DNA from: a virus
DNA length: 64,000 nt
Direction: 5' to 3' (one strand)
IMG/VR virus record: IMGVR_UViG_3300020392_000005
Shown: positions 22,421-64,000 of the stretch, piece by piece
Layout: the number at the start of each line of letters is the position of its first letter
Numbering within the stretch: the first letter of the stretch is position 1
Made by a program: the position numbers and the translations under genes
The notes under the pieces: model-generated
What the model saw: only the letters and a program-made list of their open reading frames with translations
The model's database searches: none
What the model was told of the DNA's origin: nothing

Positions 22421-22428
22421 TATTTATA
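22421..22428 (-). promoter_or_regulatory. T4-type late promoter
   Basis: TATAAATA upstream of gp22. Confidence 0.75.
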
Positions 22429-39726: not shown

Positions 39727-39748
39727 ATCTTTTTCCTACTTTGTTAAA

Positions 39749-40138
39749 TTAGAATCCAAGATTACTTAAAAATGTAGCCTTGGCAGCCTTATGGTCAGCG
39801 ATTGCTGTTTTTGTTGCAGAAGTGTCATCTGCTACATCAGCAAGTAAGTCAACCATTGACTTGTCTTCCATAAATTTTCTGTCTAAATCTTCTAAGCCTT
39901 GTTTTACATAGCTAGAAGAAGCTTTTAATGACGCTTTTTCGTCAGCGTCTGAAACAACTGAAACACCGTAAACGCTATCGTTTTCGCCATCAGTCTTAAT
40001 AGTTGTATTGCCGTCATCAATTGAGAAGTAAGCTTTACCTTCTAGTTCTCCTAAACTGATTGGCGTATCACCTGTTGGCTGCACATAGTCGTCACCGTGA
40101 GGTACTCCAGCAGTCATTGAAAATATTACTTTTGCCAT
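39749..40138 (-). CDS. hypothetical protein (possible fibre chaperone)
   Basis: Lies between RCC1 proteins; TATAAATA at 40178-40185. Confidence 0.55.
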   Translation of the reverse strand: MAKVIFSMTAGVPHGDDYVQPTGDTPISLGELEGKAYFSIDDGNTTIKTDGENDSVYGVSVVSDADEKASLKASSSYVKQGLEDLDRKFMEDKSMVDLLADVADDTSATKTAIADHKAAKATFLSNLGF

Positions 40139-40185
40139 TGTTTTTTTCTCCGTTAGTTTATTAAATTACTTTCCTTATATTTATA

Positions 40186-43100
40186 TTATCTACCGATTCC
40201 GGCATTCCACATCATACTTCTTCCTGTACTTGAATAGGTCGCAGTAGCGTGGTGTCCCAAGTTATTATTATTTGAGTAACCCCAAAGTAATACTTGTCCG
40301 TCATCTGTTCCCACCATCATTTGCGGTGAGTAATAGTTTGATGAATTATCAGTACCTTTAGCGTACATAGTTCTAATTCTAGTTCCTGCAGGAATGTAAG
40401 TATGGAACGGTTTATAAGTTCCATCTTCACCAGTCCAGTTAGTTCCAGCAATCGGATTTGCAAGACCTCCGTAACCACTATAACCTTGACTAAAAAACTC
40501 TCCGTTATCTTGTAGCATATAAAGTCTTCCAACATCTCCAGAAGAACATACGATTGATACTTCTTTCAAATTGTTAATCTTGTCAACTTGTACAGGTGCT
40601 TGGTTTGTTCCAGTACCACCATCTCCTGATAGGTAATAACTTCCAGAATAACCAGCAGTCCAAGTTTGTCCATTTTTCAATCTCATAAATGTTGTGTGAT
40701 AACCATTCCAGTATAATGTCCAGAAGTCTACGATATCTTCGTTAGGCGTAGCAGTTGATTGTGTTAACTGATTTCTGTTTGTTGTAGAGTTATCTACAAA
40801 GTTACCATATCCGTTGTAACCAGTTGCCCAAATATATCCGTTACCATCTAATATTGAGAAGTTTGAGTTTGATGAGTGAGAATTACATTGCCATACAGCG
40901 ATACCACCGTTATCAGCAGCTGCAAATCCAGACATCTTAACAGGTCTGTATTTGTCAGTTGTAGTTGTATCACCTAATTGACCAACATTGTTTCTACCCC
41001 AACCGTAAATATTATCTTCACTTGTTCTTACATAGAAACTTGTACTATCACCACCTGAGCAAGTGATATCTACAATCTTCTCGTCATTAAACCATTCTCT
41101 AGGTATTCTCTTCGGACCGTATACATTTTGCGTTCTACCATCTCCAACTTCACCGTATCCGTTGTAACCCCATACCCATACATCACCATTGTCATCTAAT
41201 ATAGCAGGTGTGTGAGTACTATCTTCGTTACCGTGTTTCTGTGCTAGTTTAACAGCAAATACATCTTCAAGTCCAGCAGGCGATATTGCCATACCAGGTG
41301 AACCATCATAACCAGTTCCTTGTTGACCGTGTGAACCGTATCCTGTGTGGAATACTTGTCCGTTATCAAATAAAATTAGTTTGAAAGAGTAACCTTCTTC
41401 AATCTGTATACATCTAGGTGTTCTTTGTCTGTCGTATCTAGTCCACTTACCACTTCTTCTTTCTTCATAACCACCTTCGTTTCTGTTTTCAGAATTGTAG
41501 AAGTCTCTCCATCTAAATGTCATTTCTCTAAAGTAAGAAGATGAACGACCTTGTTCACCGTTTGATGAATCCGAACCGTGACCTAATGTCCATATTGAAC
41601 CATTTTTATCAATATAGCAGTTGTTTCTGTATACACAACCAAATTCAGAATTACCGTGTTTGTATGGCCAGTTCATTGGTCCTCTATTCGGGAACCAAAC
41701 ACCAGCACCTTGTTCTTGCGAGTTCATACCTGCAAACGATTCCCAGCAGTTGTGATACGATTGAATATGAGCAGGATAGTTCTTACCTGTTTCATTGTTT
41801 TGTTCGTGTTCACTTCTACCAGTTAATCTTCCAGAAGTAACCGTTGATTTCGTCATCATCGGTGACCTTGTTGGTTCTTGGAAACCGTATTGAGGTGGTC
41901 TACCTTTGTTATCTCTTAAACATCTGTATAAACCAGTACCCATAAAGTAATGTTTTTCACCAGTTGATATTCGTTTAAATTCTTTGTATGATACAATATC
42001 ATTGTAGTTGTAGTGTGTATTTGGAGAATACTCACCTCTAAATCTCATAGATGATTGTACTTTATCCCAATGTTTATGACCTCTCCAAGTTTTCTCAATT
42101 GTCCAACCTAATGAGTTATACATTCCTGTAGTTGCTCTATTAGATGTTGTAGGTTCTAAACAGAAAGGATAGATGATTGTATTTGTACTTCTCTCATAAT
42201 CGTTTTGAGCATAAGGTATTTCAATCTCAACCGTTCTACTTTCTTTGTTTGTAAAATTGTATCCACTTTCAAATCCAAGTGTTTTGCCATTAGGCATTTT
42301 CTTAGGAAAGTTTCTATTGTAATCTCTATCAGCATTGAAGAAACAATCAACATATGTGTTCTCATCTACTTGTCTATTATTTAAGTAGTATTTAACCCAA
42401 CCGTTCTTGCCGTAACCTCTCCACTTTTTGATATTTGTAGGTGCAAAAGTTCTTGCTTGATTGTTTGCCATATCATATGTTTCAACTGATTTAGAGTTGT
42501 ACATACCAGCGTGATTTTTACAATAGATGTAAAGTTTAGCAGTTGCTTTTCTAACATTGATTTTAGTATGAGCACCAGGATTACCAGGAGTACCTACATA
42601 AGTTACCCCAGCAGTTAGTTCACTACCACCGCCGTGTGTACCATCAGCAGTTGTTGAAAATGCTAAATTATGTGTTGCGTTAGTTGAGTGTGATTGGTCA
42701 AATAAGTAAGTTTTACCTTCTTCAAATTTAACTAGATTATCAGCAGCTTCAACACCGTCAACATAGTATTTGTTTCCACTACCTGGGTTTGCAACCGTAA
42801 TTTGGAAAGTTCTTTCTCTATTAGCAGTTTCGTCTGTCGTATCAGGTAGATATAAGTCTATTAATCCTTCGTTAGAAGTTGGATTAGCGCCAAGTGCTGT
42901 ATTTGATGAAGCACCTGTTTTGTCAACAGCAGTAAAGTTACCTGTGATACCATCAACACTTGTTGTTGTGGATTCAGCAACTAATTGATAAACTGGTTTA
43001 CCATTTACTAATAAGATTTTCTTACCAGCAGCTGCGTGTTCAGATGGAGCAGGAGTTCCTGCAGCCACGAAATTATCTCTTCCTTGCGTTATTACAGCAG

Positions 43101-44310
43101 ATATATTTGATGAAACTTTTAATGCACCTTGAATATAAACTGGTGCAACATTAGAAGTTTCTGTTGGATATTCAGCACTATCAGCAGAAGATATATAAAT
43201 TGTTCTTCTTGTATTTACTGAAGCACCTCCGCCAGCAGTACCTGCCCAAGCATTTGTAACCTGTAAGTATGTGTTATTACTATCGTCTGTTAGTAATGAA
43301 ACAACGGTATCTTTTAATTGATTACCAGATGAATCCAACATACCTTTTAATGATGGACTTGCGTCTGTTTCAAATCCTGGTACATCGCCTTGATTGAAAG
43401 TAATCTTTCTACTAGAACCAGCACCGCCTCTTCTTGTATCTTCAGCATTTGCAGCTGTTTCAGTTTTGTACATTGGGAAGAAGAAACCGTTATCGCCGTT
43501 TGACGCAGTTCCTTTAACATAGTAAGGACCAACTGGATCCTCTCCTAATGACTTACCTGTGTTATTCGTATTATGAATACCATCAGCAGTATAAGAGAAA
43601 CCTAGTGGGTAATACTTGTTGGAATCATTGTGTTGATGAAATCTGTATGTATGACCTTCTTTGAAAAACTCCCAGTTCTTGTAACCAGCAAATTGTCTAC
43701 CTTTCGTATTGTGTCCCATACGATTGTCAATTTTGAAATCTGGCACACCACCTGAAACTTGTACACTAACTACAAAGTTATTGTCAGTTGGTACATAGTG
43801 GTATCTGAAATAGTTTTGTTCAAAACCATTGAAGTTGTCCAATTCAGAATAGTCGTCTTCTGTTTGTTGGAACATTTCGTCATATTCTTCAAATAGGTGT
43901 CTTTGATGGCGAACAATTGAACCCATTGAAGCGTCTATTGTAGAGTGGTGAGCGTGTATTGCTTCGTGCTCTTGCGAGAAGTTAGTAGAGTGTCTAGTAA
44001 TAGGGTTACCATCGGCGTCTGTTCTTTGCTTCTCATCACCTCTTTCATTTTCAGTCCAGTATTGTGTGTAACCGAAAAAGTCTGTATTTGTGAAATTCGG
44101 GTCGTTCATCCAACCGTTCATTTCTTTAGGATTATATCCAAATATTTTTGTTCCTGGAGCAAACGCATTTGTACCATCAGGCATATATTCATTTGTAAGA
44201 ATCCACATAGCATTATTATGATAAACTATGTCGTCTCTTCTATATGACTGGTTCTTGTCGTATTCTCCTTGGAATTGTAATTTAATTCTTCCAAGATTTA
44301 TTTTTGCCAT
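40186..44310 (-). CDS. large tail-fibre/adhesin with cupredoxin-like domain and C-terminal RCC1 propeller
   Basis: YIYCKNHAGM; VWVWGYNGYGEVGDG, IYGWGRNNVGQLGD, IWATGYNGYGNF. Confidence 0.75.
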   Translation of the reverse strand: MAKINLGRIKLQFQGEYDKNQSYRRDDIVYHNNAMWILTNEYMPDGTNAFAPGTKIFGYNPKEMNGWMNDPNFTNTDFFGYTQYWTENERGDEKQRTDADGNPITRHSTNFSQEHEAIHAHHSTIDASMGSIVRHQRHLFEEYDEMFQQTEDDYSELDNFNGFEQNYFRYHYVPTDNNFVVSVQVSGGVPDFKIDNRMGHNTKGRQFAGYKNWEFFKEGHTYRFHQHNDSNKYYPLGFSYTADGIHNTNNTGKSLGEDPVGPYYVKGTASNGDNGFFFPMYKTETAANAEDTRRGGAGSSRKITFNQGDVPGFETDASPSLKGMLDSSGNQLKDTVVSLLTDDSNNTYLQVTNAWAGTAGGGASVNTRRTIYISSADSAEYPTETSNVAPVYIQGALKVSSNISAVITQGRDNFVAAGTPAPSEHAAAGKKILLVNGKPVYQLVAESTTTSVDGITGNFTAVDKTGASSNTALGANPTSNEGLIDLYLPDTTDETANRERTFQITVANPGSGNKYYVDGVEAADNLVKFEEGKTYLFDQSHSTNATHNLAFSTTADGTHGGGSELTAGVTYVGTPGNPGAHTKINVRKATAKLYIYCKNHAGMYNSKSVETYDMANNQARTFAPTNIKKWRGYGKNGWVKYYLNNRQVDENTYVDCFFNADRDYNRNFPKKMPNGKTLGFESGYNFTNKESRTVEIEIPYAQNDYERSTNTIIYPFCLEPTTSNRATTGMYNSLGWTIEKTWRGHKHWDKVQSSMRFRGEYSPNTHYNYNDIVSYKEFKRISTGEKHYFMGTGLYRCLRDNKGRPPQYGFQEPTRSPMMTKSTVTSGRLTGRSEHEQNNETGKNYPAHIQSYHNCWESFAGMNSQEQGAGVWFPNRGPMNWPYKHGNSEFGCVYRNNCYIDKNGSIWTLGHGSDSSNGEQGRSSSYFREMTFRWRDFYNSENRNEGGYEERRSGKWTRYDRQRTPRCIQIEEGYSFKLILFDNGQVFHTGYGSHGQQGTGYDGSPGMAISPAGLEDVFAVKLAQKHGNEDSTHTPAILDDNGDVWVWGYNGYGEVGDGRTQNVYGPKRIPREWFNDEKIVDITCSGGDSTSFYVRTSEDNIYGWGRNNVGQLGDTTTTDKYRPVKMSGFAAADNGGIAVWQCNSHSSNSNFSILDGNGYIWATGYNGYGNFVDNSTTNRNQLTQSTATPNEDIVDFWTLYWNGYHTTFMRLKNGQTWTAGYSGSYYLSGDGGTGTNQAPVQVDKINNLKEVSIVCSSGDVGRLYMLQDNGEFFSQGYSGYGGLANPIAGTNWTGEDGTYKPFHTYIPAGTRIRTMYAKGTDNSSNYYSPQMMVGTDDGQVLLWGYSNNNNLGHHATATYSSTGRSMMWNAGIGR

Positions 44311-44344
44311 TTTAGTTCCCTATCTTTGTTTAACTATTTATTAA

Positions 44345-47300
44345 TTATCCTAATACCGCAGGTTGGAATAATGATGAATAATCACTATCATTTTGTTGCT
44401 GTATGTAGCTTCCACCATATCCAACGATTAAGTATCTATTATCAAAAGTTTTTATTTCTCTAAAGTGATATCTGTTACCATCTTGCGAATAATAACCTCT
44501 ACCTCTTATATCTTCTACTCTTCCGTGTGCAAAGTTCGGCATACGAACCATTTGGAAGTAGTAATCATCTGTCTCTTCAATACCGTTGGAAGCGTTTCTA
44601 TCTCCAACATATTGAGTAGAATATCCTACTGAACAAGTTCCGTAGTTATTTCTACCTGCCATAAACACGAATCCGTCATATGTTAATAAGTGTACTGAAC
44701 AATGCCATTGGTTACCATATGCAGATTGACATCCAATATCTTTAATGTTCATAACATCTTGCGTTGTAGTTGATGTTGTACCTGTATTAACTTGCCATTT
44801 AGGCGATACAGCAGAAGATTGATTAGTTGTGTTACCAAGTCCTAATTCATATGCACCATTGTAACCAGCACATTTGATTTTACCTTCTTGGTCTTTAGTC
44901 CAGAAACTTGCGTATCTGCCGTTTCCAGTAAACCACATATTAGTTGCGTGTGAGTGAGTTCCACTTCCAGGTCCGTTACCTACCTGTGTAAATGTGTTAA
45001 CATCTGAAGTATTACCCATCATCGCCCAACCGTATTCGTTTCTTCCAGACCAGAATATCTTACCTTTTTCAGTTAAGATTGCAACTCTTTGATATGATTC
45101 CTGACTATCTACTAGTAATTTTTTAATCTTACCAGGATTAGAAGCACCATTGTCAAAGGTTACACCAGTTATTTCAGTTGGTACTGATAAGTTAGTTGTA
45201 TTACCTTGTGCTAAAACTCCGTATCCATTGTAACCCCAACTATAAAGTTTTCCGGTTACATCTAAAGCGAAACAGAAACCGTAGCTTCCGCCAGCAGTCC
45301 AGAAAGCGTCAATCTTATTACCATTGAAATATGAAGTCTTATTAATTTTTGTTGGTCTACTTAAATCAGAAGTGTTGTTTTGTCCTAATTGACCATAACC
45401 ATTGTAACCCCAAGCCCATAGTTCGCCATCTGTATCTAAACCATAGACGCTATGAGTATTAGTTCCGTTACCATTACCACCCCAATTAGTAATATAAATT
45501 CTTTTCATCCTTGTATCTTTTAATGTGTGTGTTGAAGTATTACTTGCTTGATATACTTCTTGGTATGTACCACCACATCTTACTGGATATCCTCTGTTTG
45601 AAGTAGCAGCGTCACCATTTTGTCCGTGACCTCCGTAACCCCAATGGTATATTTCACCATTATTAAATAGTGCCATACCTGTTTCATATCCAGATAATAG
45701 TTGAATTGCTTTTGGTGGTTCTCCGTCAGGAGTTGTATGAATACCAGAACCACCGTTATCTGTACTTCTATACCAATCGTTGAATGGGAATGTCATTCCT
45801 ACTCCAGTTAGTACAGAACCTTGGTTAATTCCGTTTTGACCATTTGAGTTTGAACCCCAACTTGTAATACCACCACGACCATTAATGAAACACGGCCAGT
45901 CAACACATTGACCTTGTTGGAATTGTCCAGGCAATCTGTATAGTGGGTGGTCATCTCCGATAGGACCACTTGTATTACATAGAGACATACACTCTAAACG
46001 GTTACCAGAAAATCTGTTTTGATAACCTCTAACTTTTTTAGCAGTTGAAGCAACATCAAAGGTTACATTAGCAGAAGAGTAGAATACTTGACCATCTATT
46101 CTTAATTGGTCATTAACAGCATTGTTCTCACCACCAAGTTTAGGACCTTCTTCGTGTCCTTCCCATCTGTTTGAATTTTCTCTATCTATTCCGTCTGTCA
46201 TTGAAGCTTTTTGGTCAGTCGCTAATTCTATTTGTAATGCACCCCAAGTACCGATACTATTAACTCTAAATGTAAAGTTAGGAGCACCACCGCCACCTAA
46301 ATCAGCGTCAGCGATTGTAATAACTTCGTTTTGTGCATATCCAAGACCACCCATTTGACCACCAAGATTTTTCTTGGTTACGGTTACAGAAGATACTGAA
46401 CCGTCTTCTTCTACGATTAAGTCAAAGGTTGCGTTTGAACCAGCACCTGAAGTTGCAGTTTGGGTTACATTTCTGTAAATACCAGGTTTTCTTAAATAGT
46501 GTGCGTTGCTAAAATTGTCAACCGTTTTAACTGATTGGTAACCTTCAACGGTTACATTGAACATAGGTGTATTGAATCCACCAGTTCTACCAGCATTTGA
46601 GTTCTCAGCAGCTGCGGTAACATTTGTACAATTTACATAAGGATAGAATCCTTGTTGTCTTGCAGGAGAAGCAGCAGAAATATTTGTGATTGTTTCAACA
46701 GCACCATTGTCTACAACTATCTCATCATCAAATTGCATTTCTTCTGATACTCTTTCCCAATACTTGTTTCCGTCTGTATCAGCTTCTTGGTCCCAAGGTA
46801 AGTATTTACTAGTACCGTCTGTCGTATGTTCTAGTATACAAATATAAGTTGCTCTTACTTTGTTGATTTGGTTTCCAGAATACTGATTGTTTGTTGAGAA
46901 GTCATTATCTAATTCTACATTTACTTTGACAATATCATTAGGATAGTATGTTAAGTATGAACCACTTTCATTTGTATTGTCGTGTAAACCTCTATACTTA
47001 AATGAGCTTCTTACTAGTTTCCAAACTGGTTGGTCGGCAACAACAATTTTAGGACCCCAATTTGCAGTAGGATTATCATATGAGAAGAGATATAATTCTT
47101 TAGGTGTTTCGTTAGTAATTTCTATTCTGATTTCTCTTTTAGTAGCGTTATTGTAAGTAGATGTATTAAAGTAATCACCACTTGCAGTACCACCACCAAC
47201 AGCCTTACCATCTAAAAAGTAGGTTACATCTTGGTGGTAAAGGTTAGTATTTTTGTTAGAGGCACTATTAGCGAAAGCAGGTTTGTTATCATCAAAATCG

Positions 47301-47605
47301 TTTCCGTCGTGTGATAAGATTAGTGTATCACCAATCATTACTTGCTCTTCTGCTAATGGCCAAGTTGCTTGACCGTCCCATTTGTAAGCGTCTGAACCTG
47401 TACTTGCAGATACAGCTTTCGTCAACCTTACATATCTTCTTTTGTTCTCTTTAGGAACATCATTTGTGGAATCTGTATTCTTAACGCAGATATAATCAGA
47501 ATTATTGTACATAACCACATCATCACGGATATAAGTTTCTGTACTCTTCCAATCACCTCTAAAATTAAAGAACAGATTTCCTATTTTAGTTTTAGTTGTT
47601 GCCAT
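44345..47605 (-). CDS. large tail-fibre/adhesin with C-terminal RCC1 propeller
   Basis: LWAWGYNGYGQLG, LYSWGYNGYGVLA repeats; N-terminal FRGDW module. Confidence 0.75.
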   Translation of the reverse strand: MATTKTKIGNLFFNFRGDWKSTETYIRDDVVMYNNSDYICVKNTDSTNDVPKENKRRYVRLTKAVSASTGSDAYKWDGQATWPLAEEQVMIGDTLILSHDGNDFDDNKPAFANSASNKNTNLYHQDVTYFLDGKAVGGGTASGDYFNTSTYNNATKREIRIEITNETPKELYLFSYDNPTANWGPKIVVADQPVWKLVRSSFKYRGLHDNTNESGSYLTYYPNDIVKVNVELDNDFSTNNQYSGNQINKVRATYICILEHTTDGTSKYLPWDQEADTDGNKYWERVSEEMQFDDEIVVDNGAVETITNISAASPARQQGFYPYVNCTNVTAAAENSNAGRTGGFNTPMFNVTVEGYQSVKTVDNFSNAHYLRKPGIYRNVTQTATSGAGSNATFDLIVEEDGSVSSVTVTKKNLGGQMGGLGYAQNEVITIADADLGGGGAPNFTFRVNSIGTWGALQIELATDQKASMTDGIDRENSNRWEGHEEGPKLGGENNAVNDQLRIDGQVFYSSANVTFDVASTAKKVRGYQNRFSGNRLECMSLCNTSGPIGDDHPLYRLPGQFQQGQCVDWPCFINGRGGITSWGSNSNGQNGINQGSVLTGVGMTFPFNDWYRSTDNGGSGIHTTPDGEPPKAIQLLSGYETGMALFNNGEIYHWGYGGHGQNGDAATSNRGYPVRCGGTYQEVYQASNTSTHTLKDTRMKRIYITNWGGNGNGTNTHSVYGLDTDGELWAWGYNGYGQLGQNNTSDLSRPTKINKTSYFNGNKIDAFWTAGGSYGFCFALDVTGKLYSWGYNGYGVLAQGNTTNLSVPTEITGVTFDNGASNPGKIKKLLVDSQESYQRVAILTEKGKIFWSGRNEYGWAMMGNTSDVNTFTQVGNGPGSGTHSHATNMWFTGNGRYASFWTKDQEGKIKCAGYNGAYELGLGNTTNQSSAVSPKWQVNTGTTSTTTQDVMNIKDIGCQSAYGNQWHCSVHLLTYDGFVFMAGRNNYGTCSVGYSTQYVGDRNASNGIEETDDYYFQMVRMPNFAHGRVEDIRGRGYYSQDGNRYHFREIKTFDNRYLIVGYGGSYIQQQNDSDYSSLFQPAVLG

Positions 47606-54708: not shown

Positions 54709-55050
54709 TTATGTGGTTACATTAGGGCGAACGGTTATTATTCCTTCTATAACTCGGGTAACCGTATTTGAGGTGCTGTTCGTAACCTCTACATCATAGA
54801 CATATCTACTAGGTGCGTCTAGGGCAGAAGTTTGAGCAGCCGTTAAAGATAGTGTGATAATCCCTGTTGTAGGGTTCGCTACTGCTGTTGTCATAGTGAT
54901 ACGAGTTTTAGTACTCTCATATCCTTTTGCCATCTTAGCCTCAACCGTATGACCTGTGAGGTCAAAGGCTGCGCCATCATTACCTGCAAGGGTGACATTT
55001 GAACTAAATGTGGTGCCTTGGTCTATCCTTAAATTTGCTATTGCCGCCAT
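54709..55050 (-). CDS. BppU-like baseplate/fibre adaptor
   Basis: NLRIDQGTTF...ITLSLTAAQT...RYVYDVEV...RVIEGIITVRP. Confidence 0.65.
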   Translation of the reverse strand: MAAIANLRIDQGTTFSSNVTLAGNDGAAFDLTGHTVEAKMAKGYESTKTRITMTTAVANPTTGIITLSLTAAQTSALDAPSRYVYDVEVTNSTSNTVTRVIEGIITVRPNVTT

Positions 55051-55056
55051 TGTTTA

Positions 55057-55284
55057 CTATTCTTTTGGTGTATCTTTGGTATCTTCTTTAGGAGCGTTTG
55101 GGTCTATTCCCAAGAACTCACAGATTTTCGCATTGTAATATCTGATAAGCACTTGAACTTTTTCCATTTCAATCTCCAATCTCGCCTGATTTTGAACAAG
55201 TTCCTGTCTTGCGATAACATAGTTTTTAGTCTTGTCATCAAACTTATTCTCATCATACTCTTTACCATTAATCTTAATTGCCAT
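55057..55284 (-). CDS. small coiled-coil protein
   Basis: IKINGKEYD followed by a coiled coil; TATAAATA at 55306-55313. Confidence 0.6.
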   Translation of the reverse strand: MAIKINGKEYDENKFDDKTKNYVIARQELVQNQARLEIEMEKVQVLIRYYNAKICEFLGIDPNAPKEDTKDTPKE

Positions 55285-55723
55285 AATTTTCTCCTGTTAT
55301 AGTATTATTTATATTAATTCCAGTATCGTACTTTATTTCTTTTTCATAATATCCACGAATATCTGGTATCATACCACTATTCTCATCTTTAGGGTATGCT
55401 GATATTATCTTGTTATATATGTGTGGTGTTTTATCATACACCTCAAAGTAATCGTCATTGCCATATAATAACATTGGGTCATTTAACAACTCATAAAAGT
55501 TGTCACCATAATCTCTCTCAATCCACTTCGCATAGCATATCGCTACACAATAACTCTTTGCTGGGTATACGAACCTGTCAACTTTTTCGTTCCAATGTCG
55601 TATTGCCCAATCTACAATATCGTCTTCTTTCCATATCAAAGATATCTCTTTGTCTGCTAGAGTATCTTTATGAGTAGTGTTTAGTCTATGGTAGACTTCT
55701 TGTTTGAGTTTCCATTCCTTCAT
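55274..55723 (-). CDS. hypothetical protein, last gene of the radical SAM operon
   Basis: YPAKSYCVAICYAKW; overlaps the upstream gene. Confidence 0.65.
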   Translation of the reverse strand: MKEWKLKQEVYHRLNTTHKDTLADKEISLIWKEDDIVDWAIRHWNEKVDRFVYPAKSYCVAICYAKWIERDYGDNFYELLNDPMLLYGNDDYFEVYDKTPHIYNKIISAYPKDENSGMIPDIRGYYEKEIKYDTGININNTITGENYGN

Positions 55724-56480
55724 AACTTATATACTCCACATTTTTGCAATCGTCCCAAGCGTTGATTTTTAAATTTAAATAATTCTCTCTATTGACTTTG
55801 TAAAACTTAATCCAGTTATACCACTTAAATAGTCTTCGCCACTCATATATCCACTTATTGATATTATAGTCTGAAATATGAGTATCACTTTTATAGAATT
55901 TTTGACCTCTATAAATGTTGTTAAATTGTTTGTCAATACTAAAGAAGTCGTGTCCTATGAGATAGACTTCTTTTAATTCTGATACTTCTTTACACGCAAC
56001 ATAACCACTTGTCGTTCCTGTACCCCACTCAACTTGTTCGTGTTCTCTATAAATGTCTGTCAAGTTTTTTACTTTGTCTTCTGTACACCAACTTAATGAT
56101 ACTTCTGTTTGATTAGTTTCTTTGTCTTTATATCCGTGTACAACAAATTCTTTAGAACCTTGTCTTTGATTTTCTATTAATAGTCCGTCTCGTCTTATAG
56201 TTTTTATATCTCTATGTTCAGGAAACATACCTTGTATCATCATATCAAAATTCTGTACAGGTATCGTAACCCAATCTCTAAAATAACAATTTGCAGTATA
56301 ACAATAACCACTTCTGTATATTTCGTGCATAATAGGATGGTCAGTTGCAACTAATATGTCAGGTGCAAAATCTTTATAGAGATTATTACAACCTATTATA
56401 ACGCCTCTACCTTTGAGAGACTTTAGATTGAAACCTCTTCTACTTCTACCATTACCTATACAAAATGCTCTATTAGACAT
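55686..56480 (-). CDS. hypothetical protein with DUF115/MptE/sialyltransferase-like Rossmannoid start
   Basis: AFCIGNGRSR, IIGCNNLY, GTGTTSG, VYLIGHD. Confidence 0.5.
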   Translation of the reverse strand: MSNRAFCIGNGRSRRGFNLKSLKGRGVIIGCNNLYKDFAPDILVATDHPIMHEIYRSGYCYTANCYFRDWVTIPVQNFDMMIQGMFPEHRDIKTIRRDGLLIENQRQGSKEFVVHGYKDKETNQTEVSLSWCTEDKVKNLTDIYREHEQVEWGTGTTSGYVACKEVSELKEVYLIGHDFFSIDKQFNNIYRGQKFYKSDTHISDYNINKWIYEWRRLFKWYNWIKFYKVNRENYLNLKINAWDDCKNVEYISYEGMETQTRSLP

Positions 56481-57474
56481 TAATCAATCTCTCTTTACCA
56501 TATCTAAACTTGTAAGTATCTAATAGATACTTGTAACCATTACAACCATTTTCTAAATTTTCAACAAATCTATAATGTTCAGTTAAACAGAAACCTTTGT
56601 ATTCACACTTATTACATATAGGCGATTTATCTATCTTTTGTTTTTCTTCTTCTGTCCACTTTATATAATCTTCAAAGTTATCTACTTTTCTAAAATACTC
56701 TTTATCATCTTTGTCAAAGTCTAATACTGCTAACTCTCCTGAAGGTGTAATATATAAGTGGTCATCTGAATATGCGTTATAAGATTTATCTAAACTATCT
56801 AATATATTTAATTCATTAACAAAAGTAAAATCTTCTATTCTTTCGTCTGTATCATACTTTGTCATAAAGGCAGGATATTGAGCACATAACTCTAAAATAT
56901 AATCTTCAAATTGTGCGTCTGTTACCGTATAATTGTTTGCCTGATTTTTACTATAAGGTTTTACTTCAACACTTTTAAATCTTTTATTTCTATGTTTTAG
57001 TTTTCTGAAATTTTCCCAGAAGTGAGCACTACCTACTTCTTTTAATACTTGTTCATTTGCTAATACAAGAACAGAAAAATCAACAGGCAACTTTGTCATA
57101 TTCTCAAATACTTTCATATGGTCTTGTCTTGCAGTAAAATCATAACTAACACTTAAATAATAATCAGGATTAAAAAATATAGGATTCATTGTAGACAAGT
57201 TAGTATTAATATTAATCTTATCTTTGTAATAAAATCTAATAGTATTAGTAATCGCTTCTAATTTATCTTTCTTAATTATACCTATCTCGCCACCATATAA
57301 GTCAATATGGTTTATATCTCTATAAGTTTGTATATGTGCAAGTATATCATTTAACTTGAAATGGTCTATTGTCTTCGTATCACCTAATTGTTTAGGTGTA
57401 AGATAACACCAAGGACATCTAAAATTACAATGATAACTAGGATTGATAGATAAATTAATCTTCGGCAATGTCAT
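56473..57474 (-). CDS. radical SAM enzyme with partial SPASM-like domain
   Basis: CNFRCPWC, YGGE; C-terminal CNKCEYKGFC...GC. Confidence 0.88.
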   Translation of the reverse strand: MTLPKINLSINPSYHCNFRCPWCYLTPKQLGDTKTIDHFKLNDILAHIQTYRDINHIDLYGGEIGIIKKDKLEAITNTIRFYYKDKININTNLSTMNPIFFNPDYYLSVSYDFTARQDHMKVFENMTKLPVDFSVLVLANEQVLKEVGSAHFWENFRKLKHRNKRFKSVEVKPYSKNQANNYTVTDAQFEDYILELCAQYPAFMTKYDTDERIEDFTFVNELNILDSLDKSYNAYSDDHLYITPSGELAVLDFDKDDKEYFRKVDNFEDYIKWTEEEKQKIDKSPICNKCEYKGFCLTEHYRFVENLENGCNGYKYLLDTYKFRYGKERLINV

Positions 57475-58027
57475 ATTCAAGTTCCTCAATTATATTTAAA
57501 ATCTTTCTTTTACTATATCTGAATAAAATTAATCTTTTAATATGTGACCATATATTATTATCTTTAAATAAACCGAAATATAAAAAACTATACGCAGTAT
57601 GATTTCTCATAAACAATCTATTCAATTCATTATATTCTGCTTCTCTCTCCATAGGTTGTTCAACTCTAACACCTATTTGACCATTAACATTTGCCACTTG
57701 TTCTTTTACTTTAAAAAATATACCAGGTACATCTTTTAGTTTTTGTATTACATCAAAAATTCTTTCTATTCTATTCTTGCCTGGTACAGCAATCATAACA
57801 TACCAGTTTAGATAGTGTTTGTTTCCGTAATGACCTTCACAACTTGATAGAGGTAGATAACCTTTTCTAACAAGTGCTTTACAATGTTGTAATACACCAG
57901 GTTCTACTTCGTTATCATACTCTTTGTCAAACGGACTTACTGATAAGGCATAGTAACCATTTGAGTAATCTAAATCTTGTTTTTCTGAGGCGTGTATTCT
58001 GCCATTAGGAAATAATTTATTCTTCAT
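57455..58027 (-). CDS. hypothetical protein with TYW3-like SSCEGH motif
   Basis: EPGVLQHCKALVRKGYLPLSSCEGH. Confidence 0.5.
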   Translation of the reverse strand: MKNKLFPNGRIHASEKQDLDYSNGYYALSVSPFDKEYDNEVEPGVLQHCKALVRKGYLPLSSCEGHYGNKHYLNWYVMIAVPGKNRIERIFDVIQKLKDVPGIFFKVKEQVANVNGQIGVRVEQPMEREAEYNELNRLFMRNHTAYSFLYFGLFKDNNIWSHIKRLILFRYSKRKILNIIEELEYDIAED

Positions 58028-58542
58028 ATATTAAAATCAAAACACCCGACTATTCTATCTTCTTTACCAGGTACACTTTTCCAATCACTTACTTTGTGTT
58101 GCCAAGTCTCTTTGTGATTTAAGATAATCATATCACCTTTACCTGGGTGCAACATACAAGACAATTCGTTAGTCTCTTTATTTCTAACTGATATTGAACC
58201 GCCTTGTTCTCTATTACTAGAATTTGTAAAGTACATTAATATAGCAAGGTTCGCTCCTTCTTTCAAATCATTGTGCCAATTAGTTGATGGATTATCAACA
58301 CCATTGACTATTTCAGGTTGACCGTATAGATTATACTTACCTGATATTAGTTTAATATATTTATCACCCAAATAATTATGGGTTATTTTAAGTGCGTTGT
58401 CTACTTCTTTCGTGTGAATACAAACTTTATATTCTCCTTGTTGTTTAAAAGGTATCTCAACACCTTCAAAAAATCTAAATGCAACAGGATCCTTAAAAGG
58501 ATATACACCATTAATTAATACATTTTCTATACCTTGTATCAT
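58024..58542 (-). CDS. 2OG-Fe(II) oxygenase
   Basis: WHND, GGSI, WQHKV, RIVGCF. Confidence 0.75.
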   Translation of the reverse strand: MIQGIENVLINGVYPFKDPVAFRFFEGVEIPFKQQGEYKVCIHTKEVDNALKITHNYLGDKYIKLISGKYNLYGQPEIVNGVDNPSTNWHNDLKEGANLAILMYFTNSSNREQGGSISVRNKETNELSCMLHPGKGDMIILNHKETWQHKVSDWKSVPGKEDRIVGCFDFNI

Positions 58543-58985
58543 CTTCTAACAAACCTCCACTTAATTGCAAGTCTAGTCTCATCACCATAATAAGGATTTG
58601 CTCTATGCCTTAAATGTGATGGCATTATAAACAATGCGTTCTTCTCAAATCTATGTTTCTTCTTACCTTCTATCTGTAATTCTCCACCTTTTGTACTATC
58701 ACCTTTTAAATATAGTATTGCAGTAATCTCATTATTCTTATCGCTATCTGTATGATAACCTATTATATTCTTATTCTCGTCTTTAGTGTTTGTAGAGATA
58801 ATATATCTGACAATCAAAGGACCTAAATCAGGATAATTTAAACGACATATTGTATCTGTCCATTCAAAATTATCATCTAACTTCGTGTGTATATTCTTTT
58901 CATATAACGGCAGGTCTAACTTATTAATTGCGTTTAATAAAGTATTACCTTCTGTCATAGTTAAGACATTACGCTTGATTAACAT
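58539..58985 (-). CDS. 2OG-Fe(II) oxygenase
   Basis: YHTD, KGGEL, LRHRANP, RLAIKW. Confidence 0.8.
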   Translation of the reverse strand: MLIKRNVLTMTEGNTLLNAINKLDLPLYEKNIHTKLDDNFEWTDTICRLNYPDLGPLIVRYIISTNTKDENKNIIGYHTDSDKNNEITAILYLKGDSTKGGELQIEGKKKHRFEKNALFIMPSHLRHRANPYYGDETRLAIKWRFVRR

Positions 58986-60075
58986 TTTTTATCTCATTTT
59001 CATAAGGCGTCATTTTGATATAATGCAAACCATTTGCATTTAATATATCTTCACCATTTCTTTTCATCTTTTGACAATGTGCCTCTACAACTCCTTTTTC
59101 TTTGTAATCTTTTATTGTTTTTCTACACCCATTACAAATACTAAACATAGGACAACCATAACAACTCTTTTTCATAGTTGTTAATTTTAAATCATCTTGC
59201 AAAGGTGTAAAAAACTCACCTTGCATTTCTCTTTCAAAATCTATCTCTTTATCTTTATCATCACCGAAAGCACCACAACTATAATAGTCGCCATCTGGTT
59301 GTAAACATCTTATACCCTCATCACACTTTCTACTTAACGGACAACTCGTATGTTCAGTCTTAATTGTTGTCATCATTTGTTTTGTATTGAACTCCCAAGG
59401 TGAAAGTCCCATACGCCAGATATCAACATATATCTTATATATGTCTGATAATAAAAATGGATTTTTCTGTTCACCACTTGCCATTGCATAGTTTAGTTTA
59501 CACTCAACACCTGTTTTCTCATAACGCCAGAAGTTATGTAAAGTGCCTTCAGGTTCATTATTGTTTGACATCTGTTTTGCAAGTCTAACATTTTTGATTG
59601 CGTTGTGTACATTTTCTTCTGTAATAACTGATATAAAGTCAGGTCTATAACCACAATATTCTAACATTGCGTCTGAACACTTCCAAAAGTCTTCTTCTGT
59701 AAATTCTGTAAAGTCACCTTTCAATCTACCACCACCATATTGAAAAGAAGTTGTGATACCTACTCTATCATTATTAAATAAGTCAACCCAACGACCTGGT
59801 TTCTTATAGAAAGGCCATAAGTTTGTTGTAAGTGCAAGTGAAGTATCGTAACCTTTATTATCTAACCATTCAATAATCTTCCAGTAGTAATCAGGTGCCA
59901 TCATCAATGGGTCACCACCATTTACGATAATAGTTTTTGTTTCAGGAAACCTTTCTAAAAAACGAAATATCTGGTCGTGTTTTAACCAGTTTTTCTTTTC
60001 ATTAGTCAATTGTGTACTTGAACAAAAAGTACATTTGAAATTACACAATTCAGTAGGTTTTATTATTAGGTCCAT
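58969..60075 (-). CDS. radical SAM/SPASM enzyme
   Basis: IIKPTELCNFKCTFC, NGGDP; CPLSRKC...PDGDYYSC...CYGCPMFSICNGC...HC. Confidence 0.92.
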   Translation of the reverse strand: MDLIIKPTELCNFKCTFCSSTQLTNEKKNWLKHDQIFRFLERFPETKTIIVNGGDPLMMAPDYYWKIIEWLDNKGYDTSLALTTNLWPFYKKPGRWVDLFNNDRVGITTSFQYGGGRLKGDFTEFTEEDFWKCSDAMLEYCGYRPDFISVITEENVHNAIKNVRLAKQMSNNNEPEGTLHNFWRYEKTGVECKLNYAMASGEQKNPFLLSDIYKIYVDIWRMGLSPWEFNTKQMMTTIKTEHTSCPLSRKCDEGIRCLQPDGDYYSCGAFGDDKDKEIDFEREMQGEFFTPLQDDLKLTTMKKSCYGCPMFSICNGCRKTIKDYKEKGVVEAHCQKMKRNGEDILNANGLHYIKMTPYENEIKNVNQA

Positions 60076-60686
60076 AATCCTATCCAGTTTAATCCTGTTT
60101 GACTTTCTTTGTTTCTAATCCAGTAATCACCACTATCATCTTTCTTAAAACCAAATTGTGTCATAATTTGATAGTGATATGGTTCTTTTTGTGCAGACAT
60201 CTGGTTCATTGTTAGATGTACATAATCAAAATATGTTCCACTAGGACATATAATATCTTTATCTTTAAATAAGTTTATTGTTTCACACCACATTGTTCTT
60301 AATAATCTTCTTCTATATGTTGCGTCTTTTCTTTTCATATATCCTGCATACTTCATAGACCCACATATGATATGGTCTTTGTAAATATGAAACATACCTA
60401 CACCTTTAATAAATGTATTAGGCGTTTTAGGTTGTACCCATTGTTTCTCGCCTATTGTTTGTTGTGCAACATTATATAATTCTATGTCTTCTTCTTTCGT
60501 ACCTAACCACAAAAGAAAGTGTGCTTGTCTTTCACACAATCTAGGCATATAAGGTTTCTGTACAGGAAATCTATCTAGTTGTACTTCTATATTCTCTGGT
60601 AAATTGAGATTATTAGGTTGCAACAAGATTTCGTTGTACTCGTACATCTTCAATATATCTGTGCGTAAGTTTGTATACACACTCAT
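60066..60686 (-). CDS. hypothetical protein (possible GNAT-like fold; start may be 60647)
   Basis: Lies between two rSAM genes; KGVGMF...RRLLR...QFGFKK pattern. Confidence 0.55.
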   Translation of the reverse strand: MSVYTNLRTDILKMYEYNEILLQPNNLNLPENIEVQLDRFPVQKPYMPRLCERQAHFLLWLGTKEEDIELYNVAQQTIGEKQWVQPKTPNTFIKGVGMFHIYKDHIICGSMKYAGYMKRKDATYRRRLLRTMWCETINLFKDKDIICPSGTYFDYVHLTMNQMSAQKEPYHYQIMTQFGFKKDDSGDYWIRNKESQTGLNWIGLWT

Positions 60687-61665
60687 TGAGTTCCTCCTTA
60701 TATCTGTAATCGTGGTTCATAAAACAACCTAGTGTACATCTATCTAAAAATTCACAACTAGCACAATTATATTTTTCTAAAAAACTATTTTCTATTCTAC
60801 TATTATCTTTTCTTTTTATTGGCGACTTATATTGACTTAATGATTTTTCATCTTGTACTAGATTACCACATTGACATAAAGTACCATCTGCTAATATAAG
60901 TTTTGATACTCTACAACTTGCAAAGTTTTTCTTATTGAAAATCCAATCTCTAACAGGATGTACATTAGGATATTTGTCTATACAATGTTTGAAAAATTTT
61001 AATAGTAATTCATCGCTAGGCATATTGTATTTTGCGTGTTCATCTGGCATATAATAATCAAAGTAGATATACTTACCACTCTTATAGAGATAGTCAAAGT
61101 ATTCATCGCCTTGTTCTAAATAATATGTGATATTAGGTTTTGTAAGTAGACAAGAAAAACAGGTTACTTCATCACCCCAATATTCTACATTTGATTTAAA
61201 TATCTCAAAATCTTTTTTATTAAATCTACCTCGTGGGTCATAACTAGTTGTTAATCTAGTTTCAATACCTTCTTGCCTAGACCAAGTTATTAAATCTAGT
61301 ATCTGTTCATTACCTTGAGGTGTGGTTACTAAATTAGATACCCAATTAATTACACATTTCTTATTGTAATGGTCACATATCTTTTGTATACCTTTTACAA
61401 AAAGTTTATAACCTTCATTTAATTTCTTTGTGTAGATTGCAGGTGCAAAGACTTCGCCACCCATAACATTAAAGGTAACTTTTTGCATTAACTCTTTTGA
61501 TATAAACTTCTCTACTGACGGAAGTTTATCTAATACATTTTCAGTACCGATAGTGTCTTCGTGGTTTTGCCAACAGAAAGCACAACGCAAATTACAAAAT
61601 TCAAATAAATGAATAGTGTACTCTTGCTCTGGGTCTCTTTTTGGGTCTAATAAAAACTCTCGCAT
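60613..61665 (-). CDS. radical SAM/SPASM enzyme
   Basis: CNLRCAFC, MGGE; SCR...ADGTLCQC...CASCEFLDRCTLGC...EC. Confidence 0.92.
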   Translation of the reverse strand: MREFLLDPKRDPEQEYTIHLFEFCNLRCAFCWQNHEDTIGTENVLDKLPSVEKFISKELMQKVTFNVMGGEVFAPAIYTKKLNEGYKLFVKGIQKICDHYNKKCVINWVSNLVTTPQGNEQILDLITWSRQEGIETRLTTSYDPRGRFNKKDFEIFKSNVEYWGDEVTCFSCLLTKPNITYYLEQGDEYFDYLYKSGKYIYFDYYMPDEHAKYNMPSDELLLKFFKHCIDKYPNVHPVRDWIFNKKNFASCRVSKLILADGTLCQCGNLVQDEKSLSQYKSPIKRKDNSRIENSFLEKYNCASCEFLDRCTLGCFMNHDYRYKEELNECVYKLTHRYIEDVRVQRNLVAT

Positions 61666-61673
61666 TTAAACTC

Positions 61674-62786
61674 CTACGAGTTTGCGAATAGTCTATACTT
61701 TCCTAAAGTGTCTGTATCGTCTGATTTTTTTAATGAGAATAGATATTGTAAAAAAGAATAGTTAATATTACCTATATCAAATCTCGGTATGTACGATAGA
61801 CTAGATGGACTATTCACCGTCTCGGTTATGATTGTGTCAAAATCTGATTTAGAAAGAGTTGACTTAACTGCCTTGTCTAAATGGTTCATAAAGTAATCAG
61901 GACTAGGTGAATTTTGAAAGTCGTATAGGTCTTTGACTAATTCTTTTAGTGCAGTTTGTTTTTCACTTGACAAATTATCAATATTCATTATGTTGACAGC
62001 ACCATTGTTTGCAGTAGGTTTCTCTACAAATACTTCACTATCAGCGAAAGGTGCTAAAGGTGTAATGCCTTCAAAGACATTATCAGCATTTAAGTTGACA
62101 TCATCAGCAGTATAACCTAATGCTTCTTGTTGATTAGTATTTAACAGATTGAGAGCTGCACCCTCTCTAGCGTCTGTAAATACTTCTTTGTAAAATCTTT
62201 TTAAGAATTTTAAATATGTGTCTAATAATTTATCTTCGTGTGTATCGGCACCTGCAAAGTATTCGCCTAATAATAATTCTATTGATAAATTTAAATCCCA
62301 CTCTTTGATAGTATCTAAATCTAAAGCACCTTGTACTCTAAAGTAACCTTTAACATCTCCTAGACCAGAATTTAATTGTGTCAAATCTAAAGTATGTGTA
62401 GGTTGCAATTGTGTATTTGCAATAATCTTTTCGTGGTGTAAATAGATATCTACATATTTTTGTATTGCGTCTTCGTCAGCGAAAGGCAACATAGTCTTTA
62501 ACCATATAGTTACCAACTCTAAAAATGCCTGACTATCACAATATATAATAATCTTACCTAGAGAATTACTTTTTAATCTTACATCATTAAAGAAACCTAT
62601 CATACCATTAAACTTCGTTTTCATTTCGTTAACGCTATGAGTATGATTAATTAATGTACCACGATAAGTTGTTTGTAGCTCTTGGTGCATTGCATTGCCT
62701 TTATCAGCAGATATAACATATCTGTTAGTATGACAATCAATACTATCGTCAAAAGTCATATAAACTTTATTAAACAGGTGTAGCAT
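61674..62786 (-). CDS. hypothetical protein in the radical SAM operon
   Basis: 370-aa ORF; overlaps the upstream gene. Confidence 0.7.
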   Translation of the reverse strand: MLHLFNKVYMTFDDSIDCHTNRYVISADKGNAMHQELQTTYRGTLINHTHSVNEMKTKFNGMIGFFNDVRLKSNSLGKIIIYCDSQAFLELVTIWLKTMLPFADEDAIQKYVDIYLHHEKIIANTQLQPTHTLDLTQLNSGLGDVKGYFRVQGALDLDTIKEWDLNLSIELLLGEYFAGADTHEDKLLDTYLKFLKRFYKEVFTDAREGAALNLLNTNQQEALGYTADDVNLNADNVFEGITPLAPFADSEVFVEKPTANNGAVNIMNIDNLSSEKQTALKELVKDLYDFQNSPSPDYFMNHLDKAVKSTLSKSDFDTIITETVNSPSSLSYIPRFDIGNINYSFLQYLFSLKKSDDTDTLGKYRLFANS

Positions 62787-63462
62787 TTAGTACCTCTAAA
62801 TCTTTTGTTCTTGCTTCTTTGTATTTCTTACTATCAAATTTACCTTCGGCAATCGCCCAAGTCATTAGAAACATAGGGTTTTCTTTAACACCCCAAAAGT
62901 CTAATAGACATTTGCCTTTAAACATATATTCTTTAAAGTATTTAGTATAGTTTTTAACAATTTTTTCTTCTGGTTTATTATAGTAGAAATAAAAATCTTT
63001 GTGTTTTAATAGACTAACAAAGTTGATACCTTTAGTATCTTCTGTTTCGTCTTTAGGATATAGGTCAACATATTCTTTAAATGCACCTTCTCCTACGATA
63101 GACATATTGTATAGTGGTAAACTTTCTAATTTACTTGCCCACTTATCAATAGTCTCTAAATTTTCTGATATAAATTTTGCGTTCTTAATTTCTTTTACTA
63201 GACCTTTATGTTCAAATAGAACAATCATAGCAGCCTTTTCTAGTAATGGTATGTTTACTAACATAGAACTCTCAAAATATTCTTTTAGTAATTCATCATC
63301 ATAATTAGATAGGTCGCAAGGTATATCTAAATTACTTAAATATGTTAAGAACTGAGCACCTTTTAATGTACTCTTTTCGTAATCAATCATATAACTTTGT
63401 GTTTTATCTTCAAAGTATTTTTTTAAATCTTTCAATTCAATAGGTACAATAGTTTCAATCAT
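62770..63462 (-). CDS. hypothetical protein in the radical SAM operon
   Basis: Start at MIETIVPIE, TAATG-coupled to the stop of the CHxS-tail gene. Confidence 0.7.
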   Translation of the reverse strand: MIETIVPIELKDLKKYFEDKTQSYMIDYEKSTLKGAQFLTYLSNLDIPCDLSNYDDELLKEYFESSMLVNIPLLEKAAMIVLFEHKGLVKEIKNAKFISENLETIDKWASKLESLPLYNMSIVGEGAFKEYVDLYPKDETEDTKGINFVSLLKHKDFYFYYNKPEEKIVKNYTKYFKEYMFKGKCLLDFWGVKENPMFLMTWAIAEGKFDSKKYKEARTKDLEVLNATPV

Positions 63463-64000
63463 TATCTTCTTCCTCTGGATCCGTGGCACGAACCGTGGCA
63501 CGAACTATGACAAATTGTTTTTGATAGTGTGTAAGTATTTCCTCTTTCAACACCATAAGCACTTGCAAGAGAACTTAAAAAGTTTTCTAAATTACTATCG
63601 TCAATTACTTGACCTGCTTGTAAATTACTAGGTTGTGATGGGTTTAAGGTTACTCTTTGACTAGTTGTTAAGTGTGCGATTTCTGTTTGATTATATTGAG
63701 TACCTGCACCTGTCATTGATACAAACGCATTAGTACTCTTAATATTAGTATAGTTGTTCATTTCAGCTTTTAAAACACTATAAATTGTATTCGCTTGAAT
63801 TAATTGTGCTGAACTACCTAGATTATTACCATTAATAGAAATAGTAACCGCTGATACTTCTGTCATTGTAGATACTGAACCAGTCGCACCTGAATTACTA
63901 CCTGTTAATATATCGTTTTGAACAAAGTTAGTTTGTCCTGAACCTGGTACTACATTTCTTACTTTTAATACATTGTTTGAATAACTAACAACGGTACCTA
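63462..64000 (-). CDS. virion-type protein (5'-truncated) with C-terminal CHSSCHGSCHGSRGRR tail; candidate radical SAM substrate
   Basis: Frame stays open to the window end (GTVVSYSNNVLKVRNVVPGSGQTNFVQNDILTGSNSGATGSVSTM...), so the 134-aa call is only the C-terminal part. Confidence 0.75.
   Translation of the reverse strand, partial: GTVVSYSNNVLKVRNVVPGSGQTNFVQNDILTGSNSGATGSVSTMTEVSAVTISINGNNLGSSAQLIQANTIYSVLKAEMNNYTNIKSTNAFVSMTGAGTQYNQTEIAHLTTSQRVTLNPSQPSNLQAGQVIDDSNLENFLSSLASAYGVERGNTYTLSKTICHSSCHGSCHGSRGRR

Follow-up and report, generated by a model that had tools for sequence, protein, structure and literature searches.

The CHxS-tail gene at the edge of the window

The stretch of DNA analysed here, referred to as the window, is the 64 000 nucleotides of IMG/VR virus record IMGVR_UViG_3300020392_000005 and encodes the major head protein, portal, terminase, sheath and tail fibres of a T4-like myophage. 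At its far edge, on the minus strand, lies the 3' part of a gene whose product ends in three Cys-His-x-Ser (CHxS) units. This CHxS-tail protein, together with the radical S-adenosylmethionine (rSAM) enzymes inherited with it, is the subject of the present work. The gene occupies positions 63462..63998 (178 codons plus stop) with its frame open to the window edge, and about 79 codons of its 5' end lie past that edge. Upstream of the tail the frame contains ...FVQNDILTGSNSGATGSV... and it ends ...KTICHSSCHGSCHGSRGRR-TAA, the TAA stop being at 63464-63462. The stop shares one A with the ATG of the next gene, 62770-63462, giving TAATG. The last 16 residues, encoded at 63465..63512 on the minus strand (window residues 163-178), are C-H-S-S-C-H-G-S-C-H-G-S-R-G-R-R and conform to the motif (C-H-x-[SN])x3 followed by R-x-R-R. 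Within the tail codons is a 12-bp tandem DNA repeat at 63481..63504, with the unit TTCGTGCCACGG on the minus strand and CCGTGGCACGAA on the plus strand. The frame, the coordinates, the 12-bp repeat and the TAATG overlap had been described in a first-pass annotation and were all confirmed in the sequence.

The full length of the gene was obtained from relatives. A scan of IMG/VR gave 19 loci with relatives 57-87% identical, 16 of them with an intact 5' end, and in all 16 the open reading frame (ORF) is 257-260 amino acids long. These full-length proteins begin MV(T/N)L... and GTGAGG precedes the start in 15 of the 16. The window portion, which is 87% identical to the relative at locus L001, corresponds to residues 80-257 of the 257-residue form. 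A 134-residue product starting from an internal ATG at 63866 was considered and rejected: this ATG lacks a ribosome-binding site, and in all relatives the ORF runs through it from a start further upstream. The gene therefore extends past the window.

The tail motif is invariant among the 19 related viral loci. Among close relatives the tail codons differ synonymously, with TGT or TGC for Cys, CAT or CAC for His and both the AGY and TCN families for Ser, and selection is therefore on the peptide and not on the DNA. Since the relatives encode identical tail residues with other codons, the DNA repeat in the window is a by-product of the peptide repeat. The first-pass annotation had suggested tandem expansion of the CHGS unit. 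Comparison of the repeat number across homologues did not bear this out, the copy number being three nearly everywhere and three in every close relative. Growth of the repeat by slippage was also rejected given the fixed copy number and the different codons of the relatives.

A large family with an invariant C-terminus

The wider family was collected with an exhaustive phmmer search of 1.84 billion representatives. Matches at E<=1e-3 were obtained in 244 clusters (50% identity) and span query residues of about 50-178; statistics on the tail were taken from the best 150 clusters. The CHxS-CHxS-CHxS ending was present in 141 of these 150 best representatives and in 132 of the 141 it was followed by R-x-R-R. 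Three of the 141 have four CHxS units, two of these four-unit forms bearing a Gly-rich extension, and another three terminate right at the third unit. Such conservation, in these representatives and in the 19 viral loci, is far beyond chance. In 124 aligned sequences the only invariant columns are C242, H243, C246, H247, C250, H251, R254 and R257, and in 85 of 128 members the tail holds all the Cys residues of the protein. Thus the tail is conserved among homologues, and the full-length protein did not prove to be a non-structural enzyme, both in line with the first-pass annotation.

Most members are 175-220 residues long; the 257-residue form contains an insert. One 453-residue member (P0042, L024:10001-11362) has an N-terminal Gly_rich_2 domain (PF21722, E 7e-11) before the core and tail, so the family scaffold tolerates various added domains. 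At L036:6062-6879 a tandem pair of short (134-137 residues) tail-protein paralogues was observed right after a 2019-residue fibre gene, and assembly G006 has three such tandem pairs in all, this pair and two more.

Neither the 178-residue window product nor a full-length relative gave a Pfam match. The 178-residue product matched no NCBIfam family at E<=0.01, the full-length relative being scanned against Pfam and PHROGs only. The single PHROG match was to phrog_35144 (E 6e-7, over the C-terminal 50 residues), for which no function is known. On sequence grounds the ORF belongs to a large, unnamed and previously undescribed family overlapping phrog_35144. A word-index search for longer homologues found none, and in tblastn searches of cultured phages neither the window fragment nor the distant member P0065 gave a match. 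The members in phages Atu_ph07 and RSL2 were reached only via synteny and the conserved gene for one of the rSAM enzymes, rSAM_C. Cultured phages carrying the system include Atu_ph07, RSL2, RSF1, FLC6, SURPRISE13 and pPa_SNUABM_DT01. In Ralstonia phage RSL2 the cultured member is ORF068, a protein of 186 residues ending ...VCHSSCHTSCHGSRGRR, located immediately 3' of a cupin-sized ORF and an rSAM gene.

Predicted structure

AlphaFold2 was used with the family alignment to model a 257-residue relative (mf35e50847fe7), giving a predicted local distance difference test score (pLDDT) of 91.4 and a predicted template modelling score (pTM) of 0.85. The model comprises an N-terminal helix, a beta-barrel insert made of strands within residues 53-127, an alpha/beta core at 128-241 and a low-confidence tail. 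The core portion has a pLDDT of about 90-98. For the tail the value is 56-65, and the tail is predicted to be flexible and exposed. A 191-residue member without the insert was modelled with the same core (pLDDT 89.7). In the window, the C-terminal two thirds of the insert (residues 80-127 of the 257-residue form) are encoded at 63855..63998 and the C-terminal half of the conserved alpha/beta core (helices and strands, residues 128-241) at 63513..63854, both on the minus strand. The length of the relatives and the confident model agree with the first-pass view that the Cys-His motif is the C-terminus of a larger folded protein and not a short peptide.

The insert matched a baseplate chain of Klebsiella phage KP1 (9f4a) with a VIA-align Z of 7.5 and a root mean square deviation of 2.1 A over 71 residues. 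It also matched barrels resembling domain 2 of EF-Tu (VIA-align Z 5-6), and in BFVD it resembled repeated domains of cyanophage structural and fibre proteins. The G/S/T-rich stretch of beta character picked out in the first-pass annotation is part of this insert, and the fold of the insert recurs in a phage baseplate and in cyanophage structural and fibre proteins. The kinship with T4 baseplate and fibre proteins suggested at the same time was not clearly supported: no Pfam, NCBIfam or named PHROG match to these proteins (gp9-12, gp34-38) was found, the inserted barrel alone resembles a baseplate domain, phrog_35144 has no function attached to it and the fold of the core matches nothing solved. 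Against solved structures the best scores for the core were a VIA Z of 3.9 and a Foldseek E of 0.49 (PDB), while Foldseek of the whole model against the PDB gave nothing below E 0.08. A sequence search of the PDB gave nothing relevant, with a single match at E 0.77, and the ESM Atlas yielded nothing beyond the viral cluster to which the protein itself belongs. No paralogous barrel domain was found by BLAST among the fibre genes of the window.

A family member in virions

The family member in Agrobacterium phage Atu_ph07 is gp170, a protein of 296 residues ending FCHSSCHASCHNSRSRR, with a C-terminal peptide that ends ...CHSSCHASCHNSR. Its gene lies between those for the rSAM protein gp171 and gp169, a homologue of the window protein p230 described below. 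Alignment of gp170 with the family profile using hhalign gave 99.4% probability over the last 71 residues, and the mass computed for it, 31.89 kDa, is the value given in the proteome table. In the virion proteome of Atu_ph07, gp170 was identified by 8 unique peptides (35% coverage) and was present in gel bands 1-9 with its peak in band 1 (PMC6102473). Other proteins of ~30 kDa in the same table peak in bands 7-8, and for the proteins annotated as tail fibres, which have masses of 61-81 kDa, the peak is in band 2 (PMC6102473). The rSAM proteins gp165, gp168 and gp171 are missing from the virion list, as are gp169 and the homologue of the second small cassette protein, p149; the nearby fibre-like gp176 is included (PMC6102473). 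The family member gp170 is a bona fide particle protein that migrates far above its size. The first-pass description of the window product as virion-like finds experimental backing in this distant member of the family.

Co-inheritance with radical SAM enzymes

The CHxS-tail gene belongs to a cassette (55274-64000) that sits between fibre genes. In full-length relatives the tail gene is preceded by genes for a fibre-like protein, a cupin and a fourth rSAM/SPASM enzyme, rSAM_A, whose stop overlaps the tail-protein start; rSAM_A is directly upstream of the tail gene at every locus examined. The tail protein and its cassette neighbours recur in T4-like marine phages, in jumbo phages including Atu_ph07 and in Bdellovibrionota chromosomes. 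Distant members, only 26-46% identical, are accompanied by rSAM_C in all but one short contig and by rSAM_D, rSAM_B, p230 and p149 in most cases, and the RSL2 member is surrounded by four annotated rSAM genes. Between the window and Atu_ph07, phage Phosso, the RSL2/RSF1/FLC group, a Pseudomonas jumbo phage and Bdellovibrionota, rSAM_C is 52-62% identical; the body of the tail protein is far less conserved than this.

Among 301 sampled Bdellovibrionota species genomes, nine encode the tail protein, and cassette loci include L047 (G282:C2:2206300-2226200) and L035. On a 299-kb contig the cassette lies between genes for a prepilin peptidase and transporters and those for two fibre-like proteins with endosialidase-chaperone domains. 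One Bdellovibrionota copy was observed to adjoin genes for pilin-motif and endosialidase-chaperone fibre proteins. A compact cassette on a 2.45-Mb bacterial contig consists of p149, rSAM_D, rSAM_C, rSAM_A, p230, the tail protein and rSAM_B. Its flanks are housekeeping genes (DinG-like helicase, signal peptidase II, LolA and an SMC-like protein), with no phage, fibre, cupin or 2-oxoglutarate (2OG) oxygenase genes around it. In this minimal module the four rSAM enzymes have only one partner that is clearly non-enzymatic, namely the tail protein.

The other cassette genes of the window are all on the minus strand. The gene whose start overlaps the tail gene stop encodes p230 (62770..63462), a 230-residue co-inherited protein of phrog_20767, for which no function is known. 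It is followed by a 370-residue protein of no known function (61674..62786), a similar N-terminal sequence being encoded in L035, and by the rSAM/SPASM enzyme rSAM_B (60613..61665, 350 residues). Next are the rSAM/SPASM enzyme rSAM_C (58969..60075, 368 residues), the product of the best-conserved cassette gene, and two 2OG-Fe(II) oxygenases (58539-58985 and 58024-58542), which are accessory and do not occur in the minimal bacterial cassette. The rSAM enzyme rSAM_D (56473..57489, 338 residues) and p149 (55274..55723, 149 residues, phrog_20737), a protein without known function that is co-inherited with the tail protein and the rSAM enzymes, complete the set. Just downstream of the cassette a gene at 54709-55050 on the minus strand encodes a 113-residue product matching phrog_3304 (L-shaped tail fibre assembly protein). 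Further away, at 37522-47605 on the minus strand, three large fibre-region proteins of 734, 1374 and 1086 residues have RCC1-like repeat matches (phrog_4219). The region between fibre genes in which the cassette lies has been named the host recognition cluster in a study of pelagimyophages, which noted radical SAM cassettes there (PMC7029224).

Expression

An octamer of the T4 late-promoter type, TATAAATA, was found inside rSAM_A 180-183 nt 5' of the tail-protein start in 16 of 16 full-length relatives. At L001 it lies at 9581-9588, and the equivalent position for the window would be about 64.4 kb, past the window edge. Its codons, CTT ATA AAT A, are invariant while the surrounding synonymous sites are variable. 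The octamer is probably an internal late promoter, and its conservation suggests that the tail protein has a late transcript of its own, which would suit a stoichiometric component of the particle made in excess over its enzymes. The window itself contains ten TATAAATA octamers, a number not above chance, but every one of them is on the minus (coding) strand. Several are just 5' of structural genes, e.g. at 22421, 40178, 51897/51906 and 54668.

Comparison with known systems

The nearest experimental precedent for an rSAM-matured tail is the maturation of HxsA in the HXS antiphage system, and it supports such a reading. In that system two rSAM enzymes, HxsB and HxsC, act together with HxsD to mature HxsA (TIGR03977/03979; Li et al. 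2026, PMC13128918), a protein of full size that bears His-x-Ser repeats and acquires a modification of +8 Da within an S-H-R-S-S unit (PMC13128918). The CHxS-tail protein is likewise a full-size protein with tandem His-x-Ser units amid basic residues and more than one rSAM enzyme, and has three H-x-S units at four-residue spacing, a resemblance in form only. In contrast to HxsA, an invariant Cys precedes each His, there are three units and not five, the units are at the extreme C-terminus and the enzymes number four instead of two. The cassette is found in phages and in predatory bacteria, and one member of the family belongs to the virion, whereas HxsA is an effector of host defence. The best HxsC match of the neighbouring enzymes scored 30.5 bits against a cut-off of 267.9 and covered the generic rSAM core only. 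The NCBIfam scan of the 178-residue product gave no match to HxsA (TIGR03979), and none of the ten window proteins scanned matched HxsB or HxsD. By every sequence criterion applied, the cassette falls outside the HXS system.

The tail may also be compared with thioether and cyclophane RiPPs (ribosomally synthesised and post-translationally modified peptides). Ranthipeptides (PapB) with Cys-x3-Asp units, sactipeptides and triceptides with aromatic-x-X motifs (XyeB, GrrM, FxsB) are products of rSAM/SPASM enzymes. By analogy, the tail would share with them short repeated units, a Cys or an aromatic ring (here His), an acceptor two to three positions further on and SPASM-type enzymes, the simplest parallel being a single ring in each unit. 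Those RiPPs are short peptides with leaders and their enzymes usually have an N-terminal recognition domain, whereas here the protein is folded and 180-260 residues long and the enzymes start at the cluster motif. Against triceptide and ranthipeptide maturases (XyeB, GrrM, AmcB and PapB-type) the enzymes scored 17-21 bits, where the cut-offs are 310-450, and these matches were confined to the N-terminal rSAM core. A length of 257 residues and a confident globular model further distinguish the protein from a classical RiPP precursor, and no PqqD-like domain or protease match was obtained in scans of the cassette.

A third comparison is with the anaerobic sulfatase-maturating enzyme (anSME), which acts on Cys/Ser-x-Pro/Ala-x-Arg of sulfatases. 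It too is a leaderless rSAM/SPASM enzyme of about 370 residues acting on a whole protein, and the last unit of the tail with its following Arg, C-H-G-S-R, has an equal Cys-to-Arg spacing. Position +2 is Gly, Ser or Asn and never Pro, however, with Ala in one of 141 tails; there is no sulfatase domain, and the three units and the invariant His have no counterpart.

Proposed maturation of the tail

The interpretation we favour, and regard as rather probable, is that the CHxS-tail protein is a component of the virion and has its tail matured by the co-inherited rSAM set. It would be a late protein of about 257 residues of a marine T4-like myophage, encoded among genes for tail fibres and host recognition. 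The four leaderless rSAM/SPASM enzymes, aided by the two small proteins p230 and p149, would act on the tail before assembly and the matured protein would then be incorporated into the virion, perhaps at the periphery of the fibres or the baseplate. The body would supply recognition and, later, a structural role, the tail being the site of the chemistry. The substrate would be the whole folded protein rather than a short leader-plus-core peptide. The enzymes have the CxxxCxxC motif within their first ~25 residues and Cys motifs of the SPASM type at the C-terminus, so there is no space for an N-terminal peptide-recognition domain. Leaderless architecture of this kind is typical of rSAM enzymes acting on whole proteins, such as anSME. 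From the exposed flexible tail and the protein-acting architecture of the enzymes we infer that the folded protein is the substrate.

The enzymes may introduce crosslinks or oxidations of the radical type at Cys, His or Ser in the tail. The most likely product would be one small ring per CHxS unit, either a Cys thioether or a three-residue link from His to Ser. By analogy, three chemistries can be put forward: a thioether ring from each Cys, as in the repeated Cys-x3-Asp units of ranthipeptides; triceptide-type three-residue His-to-Ser links; or Cys or Ser oxidation of the anSME type, for which C-H-G-S-R would offer the Cys-to-Arg spacing without the Pro/Ala. A heme c attachment site was considered as well, C-x3-C-H occurring twice in the tail, and was rejected since no heme-lyase-like gene turned up in scans of the cassette. 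A bolder possibility, which we put forward only tentatively, is that the rSAM enzymes of phages and predatory bacteria build covalent crosslinks into the Cys-His tail of a protein associated with the particle or the fibres, which may thereby be tied to itself or to partners in the fibre. The high-mass, SDS-stable gp170 of Atu_ph07 virions would in that case be a product of the enzymes.

Several points weigh against maturation by the rSAM enzymes. A modification has been observed on no member and the proposed chemistry is a guess from analogy. Four enzymes exceed what a simple scheme would need for a 12-residue motif and some of them may act elsewhere. Ordinary RiPPs have a conserved leader and a variable core, and the CHxS-tail family shows the reverse; a conserved tail on a variable body also fits a metal site. 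Presence in the virion is shown for a distant member, linked by homology of the last 71 residues and by synteny, rather than for the phage of the window. The N-terminus, rSAM_A and promoter of the window's own gene lie past the window edge and are taken from relatives only. Finally, the loading buffer described for Atu_ph07 contains no reductant (PMC6102473), so disulfide-linked or SDS-resistant oligomers could explain the migration of gp170 at the top of the gel.

An unmodified metal or iron-sulfur site (Zn, Fe, Cu or Fe-S) in the tail, perhaps formed across the axis of an oligomer while the rSAM enzymes act elsewhere, is the likeliest of the alternatives, although we think it improbable. A short helix could carry the three Cys and three His, spaced four residues apart, on a single face, and the helix modelled by AlphaFold2 at residues 243-251 would align them in two stripes; this helix is, however, of low confidence (pLDDT 56-65). 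Residues of the ligand type are invariant, but so equally are the Ser and the R-x-R-R, which are no metal ligands. Oligomers stable in SDS would account for the signal in gel band 1. Metal sites are known in phage tails, examples being the HxH iron site of the T4 gp37 tip, the [4Fe-4S] cluster of lambda gpL and the metal-capped PAAR and gp5.4 spikes. The first two resemble the CHxS tail in having conserved His or Cys motifs in virion fibre or tail-tip proteins, yet such sites need no dedicated enzymes and no sequence or fold similarity to them was found. A metal site leaves unexplained the strict co-inheritance with four rSAM enzymes, including in the minimal bacterial cassette where there is no other candidate substrate.

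The same enzymes raise the question of whether the protein is a classical RiPP precursor with an outsized leader, the body serving only for recognition and the modified tail of 12-16 residues being released as a bioactive peptide or cofactor. Such products are typical of rSAM/SPASM enzymes, the tail is at the extreme C-terminus like the cores of the pyrroloquinoline quinone (PQQ) and mycofactocin precursors, and the enzymes gave weak, below-threshold matches to DynA, DarE, Clo7bot and a CXXX-repeat maturase. We nevertheless consider release very unlikely. The cassette has no conserved protease or exporter, the body is 160-440 residues long with variable inserted domains (the beta-barrel or Gly_rich_2) and was itself detected in virions at 35% coverage, and the phage genes are located among those for fibres and baseplate. 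That location could instead suit a fibre assembly factor, a chaperone like gp38 or gp57 that would be absent from the particle of this phage and use the Cys-His tail for redox or folding chemistry in fibre maturation. The gene is directly 3' of fibre genes at several loci, in the manner of gp37-gp38, and the tail-fibre-assembly-like gene (54709-55050) is at the edge of the cassette. This role appears highly improbable to us: the Atu_ph07 member is abundant in virions, the minimal bacterial cassette has no adjacent fibre gene, and neither sequence nor fold matched known fibre chaperones.

Significance

Maturation dependent on rSAM enzymes is established for peptides and a few cellular proteins. 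Literature searches for the tail motif and for the modification of virions or fibres by rSAM enzymes turned up neither an account of the family nor a paper linking rSAM maturation to a virion protein. The papers on the carrier phages treat their radical SAM genes, and also the cupin and 2OG genes, as accessory and of unknown role (PMC7029224, PMC8066314, PMC11898562). The CHxS-tail proteins form a large and strongly constrained family in the host-recognition region of abundant marine phages, and the cultured carriers and the published Atu_ph07 virion proteomics make the question of their maturation directly testable. That the family is shared by marine phages, jumbo phages of plant pathogens and predatory bacteria points to a common role in attacking Gram-negative cells. 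If the rSAM enzymes do crosslink the tail, the CHxS-tail protein would be the first viral structural protein to be matured by radical enzymes, and the phages would share with the Bdellovibrionota a maturation kit for 'cell attack'.

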